Positions 872 to 43,115 of a DNA stretch of 43,115 nt are shown in pieces. Origin of the DNA: Fidelibacterota bacterium (lineage in GTDB: Bacteria > Fidelibacterota > Marinisomatia > Marinisomatales > UBA2128); the NCBI GenBank assembly GCA_046861645.1, contig JBHHUM010000012.1:1-43115 (forward strand), given 5' to 3'. Numbering within the stretch: position 1 is the stretch's first letter; each line of letters starts with the position of its first letter. The notes below the pieces were generated by a model. It saw nothing but the letters and a program-made list of their open reading frames with translations. It made no database searches and was not told where the DNA came from. Position numbers and translations under genes: made by a program.

Positions 872-2281
872 TTGATGGATATAAGTAGTAATAGAGAATC
901 CCGGCTGGAGGAATTTAAAGCCAATCCCAAGCGGGCGGTCTGGACACTGGCACTCCCCATGATGGTAGGCTTGGCCATTCAGACCGCTTATATGGTTATT
1001 GATATGATCTTTGTTGGACGTGTAGGGGAGGTAGCCCTGGCAGCTGTACAGTTTGCAGGTCCCCTTATGTTCTTTGGGTTAGGGATTGTATTTGGATTGG
1101 GTACGGGCATAACGGCAGTTATCGCTAATTTTATTGGAGCTGAAGATAAAAGAGGTGCTGATAACAGTGCTGAGCACGGCGTGGCCCTGGGACTAATTTT
1201 AGGGTTTGTTGTTACTGTTGCTGGATTTATATGGGGTAAAGATCTTCTTCTTCTAGCAGGAGCGTCAGATAATACTATTGGTCCAGCGTGGGATTATTTC
1301 AGTATCATTATTGTTGGTTACATGTTTATGGTACTGTCCGTCTTCTTCCGCTCCATCCTGACCGGCGAAGGTAATGTGCGTACACCCGTCATGATTCAAA
1401 TCCTGGGAACAGTGCTGAATATTATCTTAGATCCAATCTTCATGTTTGGACTGAATATGGGTGTAAAAGGAGCTGCTGTAGCTACTGTTGTGAGTCAGAC
1501 GGTCGTTTGTTTTATTTTTATCTTTATGCTCTTTGTGCGGGATAACGCCTATGTCACTTTTGCCATGAAGGATTTTTCATTTTCCAGCACGATCTTAAGG
1601 AAAATATTCATTATCGGTATTCCAGCATCATTTTCCATGGTGCTCATGTCCAGCGGCAACTTCGTTTTTAATAGAATTATTTCGGGGATGTTTACTAATA
1701 TTCCCGAGATGGGCGATCTTGCTGTAGCGGCGTATGGCATAGGTAGTCGTGTAGATCATATTTTTCTCATGCCATCCATCGCGATTGCTACTGGTCTGGT
1801 AACGGTAGTAGGAATGTTTCACGGTGCCCAACGAATGGATCTTGTTCGCCAGGTTATCTATTACGGCATGAGTAGAGCGGCATTAATAGGTGTAATTCTG
1901 GGTGCTATTTTTTATCTCTACGCCAACACTATAATATCGGTCTTTACAAGTGATATGGCAGTAATCAGCTTCGGTGTAGGTTATGTACATATCCTGGTCT
2001 TTGCCTATCCCTTTATCGCCATTAGCATGGCCAGTGGACGTATCCTGCAAGGACTTGGGTTCGGTATGCCGATGCTGGTAATTACATTTTTAAGGGTTTT
2101 TCTGATCAGTGTTTTACTGGCAATTATTTTTATCTATTGGTGGAGTAAGCCCCTGGAATGGATCTGGGTTGCCATGCTGATCTCCATGATCTGTTCTGCG
2201 GCTGTGGCCAGTATTTGGTTACGATGGGGCTTAAGCCGGGTAGAGAAGCACGTTCATAAAGTTGCACCCTCTCCGGCATGA
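872..2281 (+). CDS. MATE family efflux transporter
   Basis: ~12 TM helices; DMIFVG, G(N)xxTP, NIILDPIFMFGLNMGVKGAAVAT motifs. Confidence 0.93.
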   Translation: MMDISSNRESRLEEFKANPKRAVWTLALPMMVGLAIQTAYMVIDMIFVGRVGEVALAAVQFAGPLMFFGLGIVFGLGTGITAVIANFIGAEDKRGADNSAEHGVALGLILGFVVTVAGFIWGKDLLLLAGASDNTIGPAWDYFSIIIVGYMFMVLSVFFRSILTGEGNVRTPVMIQILGTVLNIILDPIFMFGLNMGVKGAAVATVVSQTVVCFIFIFMLFVRDNAYVTFAMKDFSFSSTILRKIFIIGIPASFSMVLMSSGNFVFNRIISGMFTNIPEMGDLAVAAYGIGSRVDHIFLMPSIAIATGLVTVVGMFHGAQRMDLVRQVIYYGMSRAALIGVILGAIFYLYANTIISVFTSDMAVISFGVGYVHILVFAYPFIAISMASGRILQGLGFGMPMLVITFLRVFLISVLLAIIFIYWWSKPLEWIWVAMLISMICSAAVASIWLRWGLSRVEKHVHKVAPSPA

Positions 2282-2745
2282 GCGATAGCAAAAGCCTGCA
2301 GCTGACTTATGCACCAAAAAGTATCTGCTTTGGATGTGGTCCGGCCAATAAAGATGGCTTACAGATCAATAGTTTTGTGGATGAGGAAGAGGTTGTGGCG
2401 ACGTGGTCTGCAAAAAAGTACCACGAAGCGTTTCCCGGAGTACTGAATGGTGGAATTATTGGTACGCTTTTGGATTGTCACTGTAACTGGACCGCTGCTT
2501 ACTACTTAATGCAAGCGTCTGAGGAAAATCAGATTCCATCCACGGTTACAGCGGACTACAGCGTACGGCTGTTGCGGCCGACACCTTCTACTGAACCGGT
2601 ACATCTCCGAGCTTGGCTGGTGGAAATAAAGGGGAGTCGTGCTGTGGTTGAAGGCGATCTTACTTCCGGTGAGAAAGTATGCGCTACCTGTCGGGGTACT
2701 TTTGTTGCCGTGGAGCCAGAGCATCCAGCCTACTTTCGGTGGTAA
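2278..2745 (+). CDS. PaaI family (hotdog-fold) thioesterase
   Basis: CFGCGPAN N-terminus, NGGIIGTLLD motif; ATGA overlap with MATE stop. Confidence 0.88.
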   Translation: MSDSKSLQLTYAPKSICFGCGPANKDGLQINSFVDEEEVVATWSAKKYHEAFPGVLNGGIIGTLLDCHCNWTAAYYLMQASEENQIPSTVTADYSVRLLRPTPSTEPVHLRAWLVEIKGSRAVVEGDLTSGEKVCATCRGTFVAVEPEHPAYFRW

Positions 2746-2780
2746 TATCCGCTAACATCTTATCTTTTTCAAAATGAGAG

Positions 2781-3344
2781 GTGACACTAATGAAGGTAGG
2801 AGTTAATGATTTTGTTCTACGCCAGGTAGCTGGTTCAGGGAAGACCTATACGCTGAAGCTATCATTCGAAGAGATTGCTCGTCATGCAGAAGAACAAATG
2901 GCGGCAGGACATTTTCGAGAAGGTTACCGTGATGGCGTAATAATTGTAGCTGTAGATCAATCCCTGGTGGAAAGTTTTGTCTGTCCATTTGTACGTATTG
3001 ATGTGAATACTGAACTTAAAGCTACCGTGGTTTGCCGCAGGGAGGGTGAAGAACCTTACATTAGGTTAAGAGCCCTTTCCGGGGAATCATTGCCAACCGG
3101 TAAAGTGGAATTAATACTCTACCGCCAGGATGTTCTGGCTGAGAACAATGAACAGTCTACAAATGCAGAATGGGAGCTGATCAGCATGCATGCCCTACCA
3201 GAAGGGGTCGATGAATTACCAATGGGACCGGTAACCATGATGCGCAATCAATTGCGGTTGCCGGGGGGCACTAAAGCGAGCTATTCCTCGGACAAGTGGG
3301 CAGAGGCAGTACACTTCTGGCAGAAATATGCAGCGCTTGAGTAA
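2781..3344 (+). CDS. DUF3228-like conserved protein
   Basis: GYRDG, ILYRQDVL, WELIS, PMGPVTMMRN, GGTK..W motifs recalled for this family; start may be ATG 2790. Confidence 0.65.
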   Translation: MTLMKVGVNDFVLRQVAGSGKTYTLKLSFEEIARHAEEQMAAGHFREGYRDGVIIVAVDQSLVESFVCPFVRIDVNTELKATVVCRREGEEPYIRLRALSGESLPTGKVELILYRQDVLAENNEQSTNAEWELISMHALPEGVDELPMGPVTMMRNQLRLPGGTKASYSSDKWAEAVHFWQKYAALE

Positions 3345-3356
3345 CTGTTTTGCTTA

Positions 3357-4889
3357 TTATTCTGACCGGATTGGGAGGGTAGTAGTAACTCCGGTTTTTG
3401 TATCAATCACCCGGATCAGGTGATTGTTTGTGTCTGCTACATACAATTTTCCTTCCGCGAAGGAAAGTCCACCTGGTTCATCGAAGGTAGCTTCAATACC
3501 ATCCGCTGATCCTTCTTCACCTTTACCAGCAAAAGTATCCGCTGACTTAAGCGTAGGATGGATTACTTTTATTTTGTTATTGTAAGTATCAGCTACAAAT
3601 AGGCGTCCATCAGCCCAGGTTACTCCCAGCGGGTGTTGTAAGCGAACATCTTTCCCATTACCATCTACATCGCCAAACTCAAATAGTCCCCGGCCCACGA
3701 TAGTTTCAACATCTCCCGTATCCAAATTAATCTGTCTGATGCCACTTACTTCACTATCGGCCACGTAAAGAAACTTTCCATCAGTAGCCAGTCCGGAGGG
3801 TTGTGCCAAGGCAGCAGTTTGAGCAGATCCATCAGTAATATTCTCATGACCACTGCCAGCAAAAGGTTGAGTGAAGAGTGTTTGGGGATTAACAGTCCAG
3901 ATCTGGTGGAAACCGGCCATAGCCACATACAAGAGTCCTTTGTAATACAGTATATCCCAAGGGGAGTTAAGAGCTACCTGAGTCCCTTTACCGGAATTAT
4001 TAAACCGACGTGCCTGTTTTCCCGTACCTGCTAAAGTGGAGACCTGCTTATTCGTAAGATTAATTTGACGAATCAGGTGGTTTTCGGTATCGGCGACAAA
4101 AAGATAATTCCCTTGACGAGCTAACCCTTGAGGGTGGTGAAATTGTGCCTTTTGATAAGATCCATCTCGTTTGCCCTGCTCCCCATTACCTATACTTTCA
4201 AGAATATGTCCTGTGGATCGTTCCACGATGAGAATGCGATTATGATTTGAGTCGGAAATGTAGAGTCGATCTGTAAATGGATCGGCAAGTACCTTGCCTG
4301 GAAAGGAGAGCATACCTTCAGCAACTGGTTCATCTTTAAACTGTATTACTCCCTCACGGAGTTTCCCTAATTTTTTGTATTCAGCTACTTTTTCTTTCAA
4401 GAGAGGGTTCAGCGCTTCCCATACTCCTTCACCAGAACGGACACCAAGGATATCTCCTTCGGGATCGATGAGTGCTACCGTAGGCCAGGCCCGTACACCG
4501 TATCGCTTCCAGAGAGTATATTGATGATCATTAACAACGGGATGTTCAATCTCGTAACGGAGAATTGCTTGTCGGATGTTATCTGTTTCCCGTTCTCCAG
4601 GGAACTTGGGAGTATGAATACCAATTACTACCAGTTCTTCAGGATAAGTTTGTTCCAACTTTTTCAAATCGGGCAAAATATGCATACAGTTGATACAGCA
4701 GTAAGTCCAGAAGTCCAATAATACAAACTTTCCCCTGAATTCTTCCATGGTATAGGCACGATCACTGTTGAGCCAATGAGCATAATCTGGGAATTCCGGT
4801 GCTGGGGAGGTTGTCATAGAGGGCTGTCCATTCAATATGAAGACGAAAGATAGTATCAGGAAGAGGGAAAGAGCAAAGTTTCGTTGCAT
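3357..4889 (-). CDS. Secreted thioredoxin-like + NHL-repeat beta-propeller protein (NHLRC2-like)
   Basis: Signal peptide; DFWTYCCINC thioredoxin motif; repeated LY(I/V)AD(S/T)xNHxI NHL blades. Confidence 0.9.
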   Translation of the reverse strand: MQRNFALSLFLILSFVFILNGQPSMTTSPAPEFPDYAHWLNSDRAYTMEEFRGKFVLLDFWTYCCINCMHILPDLKKLEQTYPEELVVIGIHTPKFPGERETDNIRQAILRYEIEHPVVNDHQYTLWKRYGVRAWPTVALIDPEGDILGVRSGEGVWEALNPLLKEKVAEYKKLGKLREGVIQFKDEPVAEGMLSFPGKVLADPFTDRLYISDSNHNRILIVERSTGHILESIGNGEQGKRDGSYQKAQFHHPQGLARQGNYLFVADTENHLIRQINLTNKQVSTLAGTGKQARRFNNSGKGTQVALNSPWDILYYKGLLYVAMAGFHQIWTVNPQTLFTQPFAGSGHENITDGSAQTAALAQPSGLATDGKFLYVADSEVSGIRQINLDTGDVETIVGRGLFEFGDVDGNGKDVRLQHPLGVTWADGRLFVADTYNNKIKVIHPTLKSADTFAGKGEEGSADGIEATFDEPGGLSFAEGKLYVADTNNHLIRVIDTKTGVTTTLPIRSE

Positions 4890-4919
4890 GCGGTGTAGTT
4901 ATTTCGAGGGAGTCAGAGA

Positions 4920-5684
4920 CTACTCGATGTGTTCGTGTATCATAGGCACAAAGCGGACGGGAATGGTTTCCTGGGTGGTCACCTGCCCGGTACGATCTTT
5001 TTTCACTACCAGCAGATCCTGCCCGAAGAATGGTTCCCCAACCGGGAGTACCATCCGCCCTCCCGGTTTGAGTTGCTCAACTAGCTTTTGGGGGATTTGT
5101 TCTGGAGCTGCCGTTACAATGATACGATCAAAGGGGGCATGTTCCTCCCATCCGTGGTATCCATCGCCGATTCGGACTGTAACATTATCATACCCTAAAC
5201 GTTCCAGTCGCTTAGCAGCTTCCTCACCCAACTGTGGGATTATTTCGATGGAATAGACATGATGTACCAGCTTGGAGAGAATTGCTGCCTGATAACCTGA
5301 GCCAGTACCTACTTCCAGAACAGTGTGGTGACTATCTACCTGCATTATTTCGGTCATATAAGCTACAATATAAGGTTGACTGATGGTCTGGCCATTGCCG
5401 ATGGGCAAAGGCCCATCTGAATAAGCCAAGTTCCGCAGGGATTCTTTAACGAACAAATGGCGGGGGACATCCTCCATCGCTTTGATAACTCTTTCGTCGC
5501 TGACTCCTCGATCTATAATTTGATCCTCTATCATAGCTCTCCGCAGGAGTTGGAAGAATTGTGTGTCATCTTGGATAGGTAGGTCTGTAGCATTTATAGT
5601 TAATGCTGACAGAATGATCAATTGCATTAAGATAGAAATATACTTCCACGTCAATTTACTGCCTCTCTCCCAAAGGTAGGACAT
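4920..5684 (-). CDS. pcm: Protein-L-isoaspartate O-methyltransferase with hydrophobic N-terminal extension
   Basis: VPRHLFV, GQTISQP, VLEVGTGSGYQAA, APFDRIIVTAA, LKPGGRMVLPVG, VRFVPM. Confidence 0.95.
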   Translation of the reverse strand: MSYLWERGSKLTWKYISILMQLIILSALTINATDLPIQDDTQFFQLLRRAMIEDQIIDRGVSDERVIKAMEDVPRHLFVKESLRNLAYSDGPLPIGNGQTISQPYIVAYMTEIMQVDSHHTVLEVGTGSGYQAAILSKLVHHVYSIEIIPQLGEEAAKRLERLGYDNVTVRIGDGYHGWEEHAPFDRIIVTAAPEQIPQKLVEQLKPGGRMVLPVGEPFFGQDLLVVKKDRTGQVTTQETIPVRFVPMIHEHIE

Positions 5685-41408: not shown

Positions 41409-42134
41409 ATGGAAAAACCGTGGATTAAACCGATATCGTTTTTGCTGTTGATTTCAATGGCATTATGGCTGCCGGCCAATGCTTTGGCACAGAACGGGGG
41501 AGTTACTGAAACCCTGCATGGGGGAGGGGAACTGGCAATAGCGATTCTAGACCTGGAAGGTCGCGGTATCTCCGAACTGGAAGCCCAGACACTCACCGAT
41601 CGCATGCGTTCCGAGCTAGTCAACACTGGGGCTGTAACTATCGTGGAGCGGAGCCAGATGCAGGAGATTTTAGAGGAGCAGGGCTTTCAGCAGACGGGCT
41701 GTACTTCCGATGAGTGTGCTGTGGAAGTTGGTAAACTGTTGGGTGTGGAGAACATGGTAACCGGCTCTATAGGGAAGATCGGTTCCAGCTATACCCTTGA
41801 CGTCCGCATGTTCAAGGTCGAGACGGGAGCCATCCTGAAGACGGTGAATCGTACTTACCGGGGTGAAGTAGACGGTCTTATTACAGAGATAGAACGGCTG
41901 GCGTGGGATATTGTGGACATGACGCCACCTGCCGGTAGATTTTTGGATGAGACATTACCAGTAGCAGCTGCCCCTGCTGCTGCACCGGCGCCGGAAAAGA
42001 AGAAAAGCAAAGCGCTACTCTGGATTGGTCTCGGACTGGCGGCTGCCGGAGCGGGAGCCTACCTGGCTCTTGGTGCAGGTGAAGAACCGGTGCCAACTAT
42101 TGGTACGCCGCCGGATTTTCCGCCGGTGCCGTAG
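41409..42134 (+). CDS. Secreted CsgG/HfaB-like protein with C-terminal TM and Pro-rich tail
   Basis: AAGGAG SD; signal peptide; IVERSQM.EILEEQGFQQTGC...CAVEVGKLLGV; C-terminal hydrophobic helix and PPDFPPVP. Confidence 0.8.
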   Translation: MEKPWIKPISFLLLISMALWLPANALAQNGGVTETLHGGGELAIAILDLEGRGISELEAQTLTDRMRSELVNTGAVTIVERSQMQEILEEQGFQQTGCTSDECAVEVGKLLGVENMVTGSIGKIGSSYTLDVRMFKVETGAILKTVNRTYRGEVDGLITEIERLAWDIVDMTPPAGRFLDETLPVAAAPAAAPAPEKKKSKALLWIGLGLAAAGAGAYLALGAGEEPVPTIGTPPDFPPVP

Positions 42135-42141
42135 AGAAAAA

Positions 42142-42260
42142 GTCTGAACCTTGATTAATAGGATTAAACGATTAGCATGATTAAAAAAATCCCTGCCCGC
42201 AGTCTTTTCTTGGCGGGAAGAAAATCAGGTAAATCAAGCGAATCAAGGTTCAGACAATAT
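42142..42260. repeat. Palindromic direct repeat, copy 1
   Basis: 15-bp perfect terminal IR GTCTGAACCTTGATT (42142-42156)/AATCAAGGTTCAGAC (42241-42255); 42146-42260 matches 42688-42802 at 113/115. Confidence 0.95.
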
Positions 42261-42280
42261 AAAGGATAAGACGATAAAAA

Positions 42281-42688
42281 TTGAAATACGAAGATATTAC
42301 TAAACGCATCATCGGTGCCGCCATGAAAGTGCATAGTACTTTAGGCAATGGTTTCCAAGAAGTCATTTACCAGCGGGCTATGGCACTTGAAATGCCTTAT
42401 TTTGATCTATCCTTTATTCGTGAAATGGAAATGCCTATTAACTGCAGAGATCAGCAAATTGGAACCAGAAGAGTTGATTTTTTTGTTAAAGAATGTATCC
42501 CAACTGAATTAAAAGCCATTATCAAATTAGAAGACGTACACTTAGCTCAAGCTATGAATTACTTAGAAGCATTCAATTTGGAAGTAGGATTGCTCATTAA
42601 CTTCGGGGCAAAAAGCCTGGAATTTAAGAGGGTACATAATAATAGTTTGGACCCAGATGCTAAGGATTATGATGATGAGAAAAATTAG
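42281..42688 (+). CDS. GxxExxY protein (PD-(D/E)XK nuclease-fold family)
   Basis: IIGAAMKVHSTLGNGFQEVIYQ, RVDFFV...ELKA, QAMNYL, GLLINFG; TTG start. Confidence 0.92.
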   Translation: MKYEDITKRIIGAAMKVHSTLGNGFQEVIYQRAMALEMPYFDLSFIREMEMPINCRDQQIGTRRVDFFVKECIPTELKAIIKLEDVHLAQAMNYLEAFNLEVGLLINFGAKSLEFKRVHNNSLDPDAKDYDDEKN

Positions 42689-42802
42689 AACCCTGATTAA
42701 TAGGATTAAACGATTAGCATGATTAAAAAAATCCCTGCCCGCTGTCTTTTCTTGGCGGGAAGAAAATCAGGTAAATCAAGCGAATCAAGGTTCAGACAAT
42801 AT
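42688..42802. repeat. Palindromic direct repeat, copy 2
   Basis: 542 bp downstream of copy 1; two substitutions; begins inside the GxxExxY stop codon. Confidence 0.95.
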
Positions 42803-42830: not shown

Positions 42831-43115
42831 ATGAAAAAATCGCTAATTAATAGAACCTTCAAGGTTTCCAAAACCTTGAAGGTTTTTCTGCTACTCACCG
42901 CCATGAGCCAAATAGGTGTGGCACAGAACTACTCCCTAAGTTTTGATGGAAGTGATGATTATGTGGATTGTGGCAATTCTGCTGATTTCAATGTTGTAGA
43001 TGAGTTAACTATTTCTGTATGGATAAAGCCTAATGAAATAAAAAATGCTTCAATAGTTGATAGGTTACCTTACTCTGGAGACAATGGCTATCGTTTGAAT
43101 ACTAGGAGTGATGGT
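42831..43115 (+). CDS. Secreted LamG/concanavalin-like domain protein (truncated by window end)
   Basis: Open frame MKKSLINRTFKVSKTLKVFLLLTAMSQIGVAQNYSLSFDGSDDYVDCG...LTISVWIKP; not in the ORF track because it has no stop in the window. Confidence 0.85.
   Translation, partial: MKKSLINRTFKVSKTLKVFLLLTAMSQIGVAQNYSLSFDGSDDYVDCGNSADFNVVDELTISVWIKPNEIKNASIVDRLPYSGDNGYRLNTRSDG
42854..42884. repeat. 31-bp double palindrome inside signal-peptide coding sequence
   Basis: AACCTTCAAGGTTT-CCA-AAACCTTGAAGGTT; 14-bp perfect IR, each arm itself self-complementary. Confidence 0.9.

Follow-up and report, generated by a model that had tools for sequence, protein, structure and literature searches.

A likely minimal mobile cassette in a Fidelibacterota genome: a GxxExxY nuclease-fold gene with palindromic repeats specific to its clade

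The window studied here is the whole stretch of 43,115 nucleotides from contig JBHHUM010000012.1, and the genome to which it belongs is referred to as G000. Near its right end, a gene of the GxxExxY family lies between two nearly identical palindromic repeats, and the locus is likely one copy of a minimal, selfish, mobile cassette made up of the GxxExxY gene and clade-specific palindromic repeats. This reading starts from what is directly observed, namely the pairing of gene and repeat with its specificity for protein clades, the presence and absence of the gene at one site, repeats without a gene dispersed through the genome, and units joined head to tail.

Recomputation reproduced the geometry on which the earlier note had based its proposal of a cassette. 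The direct repeats at 42146-42260 and 42688-42802 are identical at 113 of 115 positions, with mismatches at 42151 and 42201, and are spaced 542 bases apart. Copy 1 carries GATT boxes at 42153, 42162, 42170 and 42179, mirrored by AATC at 42188, 42223, 42232 and 42241, and its terminal inverted repeat (42142-42156/42241-42255) is a perfect 15 bp. Beyond this terminal stem, pairing is limited to the GATT/AATC boxes, and the spacers are unpaired. Folded as single-stranded DNA, copy 1 reaches -22.9 kcal/mol (z -5.9), with none of 200 shuffles equally stable; copy 2, which has lost the end of its terminal stem, reaches -13.4 kcal/mol (z -1.8). Because the same 8 bases precede both copies (42134-42141 and 42677-42684), the repeat unit begins further left than the 115-base match, and the left end of copy 2 is one base shorter. 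Copy 2 had been described as starting in the stop codon of the gene; its degenerate terminus does overlap that codon, but the start of the unit has to be moved leftward to the 8-base stretch. The features of the locus are as follows.

41409..42134, + strand: upstream host gene with an LpoB/CsgG-like domain, syntenic in 30 genomes; the element begins 8 bases past its stop codon, and the gene is context outside the cassette
42134..42141, + strand: 8-base A-rich stretch, also found at 42677-42684; site of the head-to-tail junction in contig L001, from an alignment of the window and L001 copies
42142..42256, + strand: repeat copy 1, with a left arm at 42142-42183 (terminus and four GATT boxes) and a right arm at 42223-42256
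42196..42217, + strand: loop of copy 1 with an inner hairpin, between the left and right arms
42281..42688, + strand: GxxExxY gene (TIGR04256, PF13366 PDDEXK_3), 135 aa, TTG start
42645..42676, + strand: degenerate left arm forming the disordered C-terminal tail of the protein, with 3 mismatches to the 15-base terminus, 9-nt box spacing, and predicted pLDDT below 60 for residues 121-135
42677..42684, + strand: second copy of the 8-base stretch, at the 3' end of the gene; assembly graphs branch here, and the gene contigs of runs X6 and X8 stop at 42684
42685..42798, + strand: repeat copy 2, whose degenerate left terminus overlaps the stop codon of the gene

Read directly, the 3' end of the gene (about 42645-42676) is thus a degenerate left arm translated in frame, and the proteins of relatives P0004 and P0005 end in SLNHD and LLNHD, which is the translation of an intact left arm.

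Given that the locus lies 313 bases from a contig end and that the whole stretch is spanned by no single contig in any of the runs compared, one might suspect the duplication of being an assembly artefact. We consider this very improbable, since all four junctions recur in sequencing runs of other studies whose contigs we aligned to the window: the join of the upstream gene with copy 1 is bridged in X5 (record 17) and X8 (record 24), that of copy 1 with the gene in X6 (record 25), that of the gene with copy 2 in X5 (record 19), and that of copy 2 with the downstream sequence in X5 (record 20) and X8 (record 30). The copies are moreover not identical, having unlike left ends and two base differences in their interior, and the same layout occurs in 10 of 83 relatives.

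The enclosed gene is the 135-aa GxxExxY gene that had been proposed, scoring 121.6 bits against TIGR04256 (cut-off 35) and 117.7 bits against PF13366 (cut-off 22 bits). These two families were the only matches in the protein profile search, which returned no GIY-YIG domain (cd10448), and a PDB sequence search yielded nothing significant. An AF2 model was obtained at pLDDT 89.5, falling below 60 for residues 121-135. Its best Foldseek matches are the Cas4 proteins SSO0001 (PDB 4ic1, E 3e-4) and Pcal_0546 (PDB 4r5q, E 4e-3), and the top Foldseek and VIA rows are PD-(D/E)XK nucleases, with VIA Z scores of 7.8 (SSO0001), 6.7 (Pcal_0546) and up to 8 overall. The likeness to Cas4 gives the fold class only in this modelled comparison, the VIA Z scores of the Cas4 matches lying below 8 and being tied with those of restriction enzymes; the protein also differs from both Cas4 proteins in its length (135 versus about 205 aa), at 16-19% identity, and it has no conserved four-cysteine cluster motif and no CRISPR linkage. 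Separately, the cassette of one close relative (L014, 810-1346) lies directly 3' of a cas4 gene. The predicted catalytic residues are E27, D66, E76/K78 and Q90xxxY94; across 66 relatives E27, D66, K78, Q90 and Y94 are invariant and E76 is near-invariant. On the model, then, the core residues are in place for the PD-(D/E)XK fold attributed to the protein earlier, and we regard it as a predicted nuclease whose predicted PD-(D/E)XK site is intact and whose fold resembles that of Cas4 and RecB. The QxxxY motif is typical of RecB-family nucleases, many of which act on single-stranded DNA. We know of no PD-(D/E)XK protein that catalyses strand transfer by itself.

Substitution counts place the clade under purifying selection, with a median pN of 0.20 against saturated pS in 64 pairs and broken genes in 4 of 99 cases. 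The window gene differs from that of L001 at 5 sites, 4 of them amino-acid changes, and two of the changes in the window allele fall at near-invariant positions (C55 for Y, K70 for E), so that this allele may be in early decay. The wider GxxExxY family occurs in 174 of the 301 genomes of the phylum with up to 15 matches each, and PF13366 as a whole has at least 8000 matches. In the part of the literature account available to us, PF13366 is a very large family with function listed as "Unknown" and many horizontal transfers (PMC3424549).

The association of gene and repeat was assessed in 100 close-relative loci (18 from genomes, the best 80 of 584 from metagenomes, and 2 viral), 83 of which have full flanks. 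In 78 of these 83 (metagenome loci being the best 80 of 584) the gene has the terminal motif within 260 nt, and in 65 it has it on both sides; the corresponding figures are 1 in 28 for loci from other clades, 5 of 136 for windows placed 1.1-1.4 kb away, and 67 of 3660 for shuffles. GATT boxes are also carried by 15 of 15 further loci of the phylum at E<=1e-40. Other GxxExxY clades have periodic palindromes of their own, built on different 8-9-nt words. In a tree of 60 proteins (30 drawn at random from the 100 close loci plus all 30 others, both sets having been sampled by protein similarity), the GATT word is confined to one side of a branch with 100/99 support, and labels change 8 times versus 26.6 times when shuffled. 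Comparable periodic palindromes that track the protein clade are therefore found with GxxExxY relatives, a pattern whose absence would have spoken against the cassette as first proposed. The match between word and clade shows co-inheritance of gene and repeat at the level of sequence, for which simple co-inheritance would suffice.

Neighbouring boxes stand 8 or 9 nt apart in 288 of 340 intervals, and 977 of 1185 terminal positions pair over 79 elements. In the terminal stems, G.T oppositions (39) are about as frequent as A.C (43), so no strand-specific selection of the hairpin is shown, and the boxes may be read in duplex DNA too. The commonest arrangement among the 83 close relatives (again with the best 80 of 584 metagenome loci) is left arm-gene-right arm, at 29 of 83, and the layout of the window, a full hairpin-gene-hairpin direct repeat, is a minority at 10 of 83; the direct repeat can therefore not be kept as the defining unit of the cassette. 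With L and R denoting arms and the bar the gene, the layouts LR|R (12), LR|LR (10, the form in the window), L|LR (7), L|L (3) and R|R (2) are those expected from crossover within one arm or one hairpin, and forms with a single duplicated arm account for much of what remains. In 8 of 71 loci, 27-95 bp from the tail of the upstream host gene recur immediately past the right end at roughly 70-98% identity, as is expected when a circle carrying flanking DNA integrates by homology. These loci (L005, L006, L008, L010, L011, L106, L117 and L124), in which the upstream gene is an EcoEI-type hsdR where scanned, may go back to a single event. Runs X1, X6, X8, X10 and X13 also contain a related GxxExxY gene, about 90% identical over 42527-42642, at contig depths of up to 776, followed there by a 20-base linker and an intact left arm.

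The repeats are not restricted to the gene. G000 contains 29 arms in 21 loci (19 arm-bearing loci other than the window copies), compared with 1 arm in a reversed-genome control; besides the window, 9 two-armed gene-less elements of 80-163 bp are present, and gene-less loci of the family number about 9-19. The inner loop of the window copies has no further significant match in G000, so the two copies are duplicates of each other rather than independent insertions. Seven other genomes have at least two exact termini (G003 with 14, G006 with 8, G072 with 6, and others), and in these incomplete assemblies no close-clade gene was found at E<=1e-40. The 29 other GxxExxY loci in G000, G003, G006, G021 and G072 (30 of 37 listed matches) have other words or no clear word, and none of them, in these likewise incomplete assemblies, has a GATT-type word. 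Gene-less copies in genomes where the cognate gene is not found would fit transient visits by a polymorphic cassette, incomplete assemblies, or an unrelated mobiliser. Two broken GxxExxY genes of other clades, each with its own repeat word, were noticed in G000 (G000:C147:94-384 and G000:C10:7000-7297). The window arms score 0.88-0.93 against arms at the same site in G003 and G021 and at most 0.85 against any other G000 arm; kinship with the same-site arms is weakly suggested by these sequence scores, as G003:C35 and G006:C30 arms are similarly close at 0.88-0.90. A hybrid signature of resident and incoming sequence in the two copies was considered and is not claimed, the arm variants being mixed among strains in the run tables.

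At the syntenic site the gene is present in 1 of 30 loci of the order, that of G000. A gene-less element occupies the same junction in the congener G003 and in G021, a member of another family, and the congener G001 has nothing there. In runs X6, X10 and X13, from two studies, gene-bearing and gene-less alleles co-occur in a related strain whose upstream gene is about 92% identical to that of the window. The gene-less contig joins 42135 to 42827 through 166 other letters at depths of 42.8, 84.4 and 136.7 (X6, X10 and X13), while contigs leading into the repeat have depths of 46, 10 and 30, all of these being depths of contigs, which do not give the proportions of cells. Immediately past the upstream stop codon the 166 letters part from the window sequence; they fail to align to the repeat at 85%, and for this reason the gene-less allele is not an exact single-repeat empty site; as a guess, their length would suit a diverged gene-less element such as that of G003 (157 bases plus leader). 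Empty alleles had been predicted, and gene-less ones do exist both among the 30 syntenic loci and within the three runs, but not in the exact single-repeat form that was foreseen. In X10 and X13 the filled allele leaves the window sequence in mid-gene, at 42381, which suggests a truncated or interrupted copy.

Contig L001, 1092 bases long and consisting of cassette only, reads repeat-gene-repeat-gene-repeat at 96% DNA identity to the window, and its two genes are identical over 400 nt. Its back-junction joins the gene end to an intact left terminus at the 8-base stretch, outside the hairpin, and gives a unit of 544 bases (543 in window lettering). In X8, a run of another study, record 27 likewise joins the gene end to an intact arm of the copy-1 type, beside the ordinary join (depths 5.8 and 2.7); taken by itself, this junction could come from an allele whose copy 2 is intact. 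The L001/X8 junction is either a tandem or a circle, between which contigs cannot distinguish. The circles of 542 bp that had been anticipated thus have a counterpart in a real head-to-tail junction, although the unit is 544 bases, is joined at an 8-base microhomology, and may be tandem or circular. L001 is filed in a bin of Candidatus Scalindua rubra, which itself holds one gene-less element of the repeat family; cross-phylum transfer is not accepted as shown, since mis-binning is likely given that the contig is cassette-only and that L001-type repeat variants stand directly behind the host's upstream gene in X10 and X13. No match was found among INPHARED phages, the 7 matching plasmid records are all below 60% identity, and 2 viral contigs matched, so no carrier between cells was identified in these searches. 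With the gene in 1 of 30 syntenic loci, coexisting alleles and a head-to-tail junction, the idea of a recent mobile unit of gene plus repeat is upheld.

Among known systems, the cassette shares several traits with Ssn. In the portion of the Ssn paper available to us, a GIY-YIG nuclease gene is flanked by NTS/SRM repeats on one side in 71% and on both sides in 42% of cases, and the authors liken the gene-repeat layout to a mobile element (PMC11893778). As far as that portion goes, both systems have a small nuclease gene encoding one domain and lying next to palindromic repeats of its own (78 and 65 of 83 for GxxExxY), dispersed gene-less repeat copies, and repeat variants that go with protein variants. 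Unlike the GIY-YIG enzyme of Ssn, the GxxExxY protein is predicted to have a PD-(D/E)XK, Cas4/RecB-like fold; the repeat is 90-115 nt long, with arrays of 8-9-nt-spaced boxes and unpaired spacers, instead of a 20-50-nt hairpin; and the gene is often multi-copy, with tandem and polymorphic states seen and nuclease activity predicted. REP/REPIN sequences with their RAYT, in the sections of PMC5581495 at hand, similarly place one enzyme gene beside cognate palindromes and gene-less hairpin doublets in intergenic space. In those sections, however, RAYTs are mostly single-copy and vertically inherited, whereas the GxxExxY gene is patchy and polymorphic, and it is not an HUH Y1 transposase as RAYT (TnpA-REP) is. 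The two PF01797 (Y1) genes of G000 have other palindromes, with no GATT-family terminus in their 3-kb loci. With bacterial MITEs, as covered by the available part of PMC3184786, the element shares terminal inverted repeats, a length below 200 bp, intergenic placement and arms fused in frame to gene ends; it departs from MITEs as described there in that, at full length, it encodes a protein of nuclease fold and not a transposase, and we identified no cognate transposase. No DDE, HUH or DEDD transposase lies in the element, and 1 of 60 scanned upstream neighbours is one; a short fixed-length target duplication was not found in the window, and the element flanks across relatives are A/T-rich only.

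Integron cassettes consist of a gene and a hairpin attC site moving as a unit with a possible circular form, and in this the GxxExxY cassette is like them. The attC site has an invariant AAC/GTT core at its stem ends; unlike it, the cassette has the core C in only 55 of 79 left termini and one extra base relative to that core. Integrase domains (PF00589) gave five matches in G000, all on other contigs, in a setting where the window contig ends 313 bases downstream, and none among the 60 upstream neighbours. The description of the cassette as neither attC nor IS stands as far as these comparisons go, the core triplet not being invariant and no transposase being encoded in the element. Homing endonuclease genes are nuclease genes sitting in their own target, with gene-less alleles, and normally come without dispersed families of gene-less repeats. 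The cassette is like them in having a nuclease-fold gene in its own presumed target with filled and gene-less alleles coexisting, and unlike them in that its repeats form a dispersed gene-less family. In the literature searched we found no description of a GxxExxY-repeat pairing; supplements to the Ssn paper or to surveys of repeats may list these elements.

The junction that holds the cassette also receives other elements. At 42854-42884, a palindrome that is read in frame in the downstream ORF's leader is a REP from another family. Two of its copies flank a Y1/RAYT gene on G000:C129 (L046), six were found in the genome, and it recurs in several relatives. A four-helix-bundle gene (TIGR02436, 40820-41340) lies between inverted arrays of a 6-7-nt GCAGT-type word. 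Its cassette is at the junction in 5 of 30 syntenic loci versus 1 of 30 for the GxxExxY gene, is absent in G001, and is replaced by other palindromes in G007; although the two cassettes were named together as candidates for an undescribed system, their repeat words and distributions differ, and we treat them as analogous but separate. Across the order, the site just 3' of the LpoB-like gene (L244-L273) is a hot spot for unrelated insertions, among them several palindrome families, an ORF resembling RAYT (L264) and ORFs resembling nucleotidyltransferases (L262, L272). The same site in G003 (L039, G003:C125, about 2280-5110) has three elements, together with a tandem duplication of 348 bp, a second copy of the downstream leader, an ATPase-like gene and a nucleotidyltransferase/HEPN-like pair, the gene names at both sites coming from reading the sequence only.

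An account in which the repeats are MITE- or REP-like and are moved by another enzyme (RAYT, IS transposase) or shuffled by RecA, with GxxExxY a long-term passenger and the direct repeats and tandem arising by ordinary homologous recombination, would profit from the plentiful gene-less repeats in genomes where the cognate gene was not found, from a Y1/RAYT-like ORF beside the cassette in G022 (L040, as read from its sequence), and from the site being a general hot spot for unrelated palindromes. Yet the two Y1 genes of G000 are flanked by their own, different palindromes, the 60 scanned upstream neighbours include a single transposase and no RAYT or integrase, and a passenger is not expected to retain its catalytic residues and a matching word per clade. 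We therefore consider this account unlikely, while a transposase acting in trans on the repeats is possible and compatible with the data. Somewhat less probable again is a host-serving system like Ssn, in which the nuclease would cut incoming repeat-bearing single-stranded DNA or aid defence, the repeats would be targets or autoregulatory operators, and movement would be incidental to the horizontal transfer of defence loci. SsnA does have the same NTS-gene-NTS layout and modulates transformation, according to the available portion of PMC11893778, and among the 60 upstream neighbours scanned against Pfam, out of 88 upstream ORFs, 29 are restriction-modification genes; against this, a PADLOC search gave no match, the neighbours in the window are envelope genes, and the patchy, multi-copy, polymorphic occurrence better suits selfish turnover than a fixed host role.

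The arms might also act in RNA, if the transcript folded to loop out the insert between the stop codon and the start codon of the host genes and the protein bound or cut RNA. In 46 of 75 loci an upstream same-strand stop falls between -10 and +13 relative to the left terminus, and in 17 of 64 an ATG stands at +2/+3 of the right terminus (both counts without a chance control), and 79 of 88 upstream ORFs are co-oriented. The same placement, however, follows from purging of insertions inside genes, G.U is not in excess over A.C on the coding strand (39 versus 43), the spacers are unpaired, and no Rfam family matched at threshold, a single chance match lying far below it, which makes a role in RNA improbable. 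A promoter and terminator scan gave results at chance level. The selfish cassette that nicks its own repeats is the simplest account, as it covers the clade-matched words, the conserved active site, presence and absence, a junction at the hairpin base and crossover-type layouts, and the tail repeats in 8 of 71 loci point to a circle that integrates by homology. The main contrary result is that gene-less repeats persist in genomes where the cognate gene was not found; the gene-less allele not being an exact single-repeat site also speaks against it.

In the mechanism that we propose, the protein would bind the boxes spaced 8-9 nt apart and would nick the DNA where the repeat ends, the nicking would release a small circle of gene plus repeat, and the circle would integrate by single crossover at a homologous repeat to yield the direct repeats of the window; gene-less copies might, as a guess, reach new sites by nicking followed by strand invasion. 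We put the chances at about even that the cassette nuclease nicks its cognate repeats and that a small circle integrates by crossover. Binding and cutting of the repeats by the GxxExxY protein is fairly probable, and the junction represents a circular intermediate, with host recombination completing integration, with slightly better than even probability. A preference of the protein for single-stranded or extruded DNA, by analogy with Ssn and RecB/Cas4-type nucleases, is put forward tentatively. Taken to its furthest extent, the model would make GxxExxY cassettes autonomous mobile elements smaller than IS200, with a bare PD-(D/E)XK nuclease in place of a transposase or recombinase. This nuclease would read the boxes arrayed at 8-9-nt spacing, nick at the base of the hairpin, release a circle of ~0.54 kb, paste it into gene-less copies and also seed those copies; each clade having its own word, the family would constitute a large natural set of sequence-specific nickases, and the locus, with its filled, empty and head-to-tail states in living populations, would be an element caught moving. 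We hold this extended version to be doubtful.

The element is probably mobile now, and what the window contributes is population-level evidence of current turnover. For PF13366, the clade-specific repeat provides a defined candidate substrate, which brings the function within reach of tests with oligonucleotides and two point mutants. Should the protein drive mobility, it would join HUH and GIY-YIG as a third enzyme class maintaining populations of palindromic repeats; it would explain otherwise unexplained periodic intergenic repeats, and it may bear on the reshuffling of restriction-modification operons.
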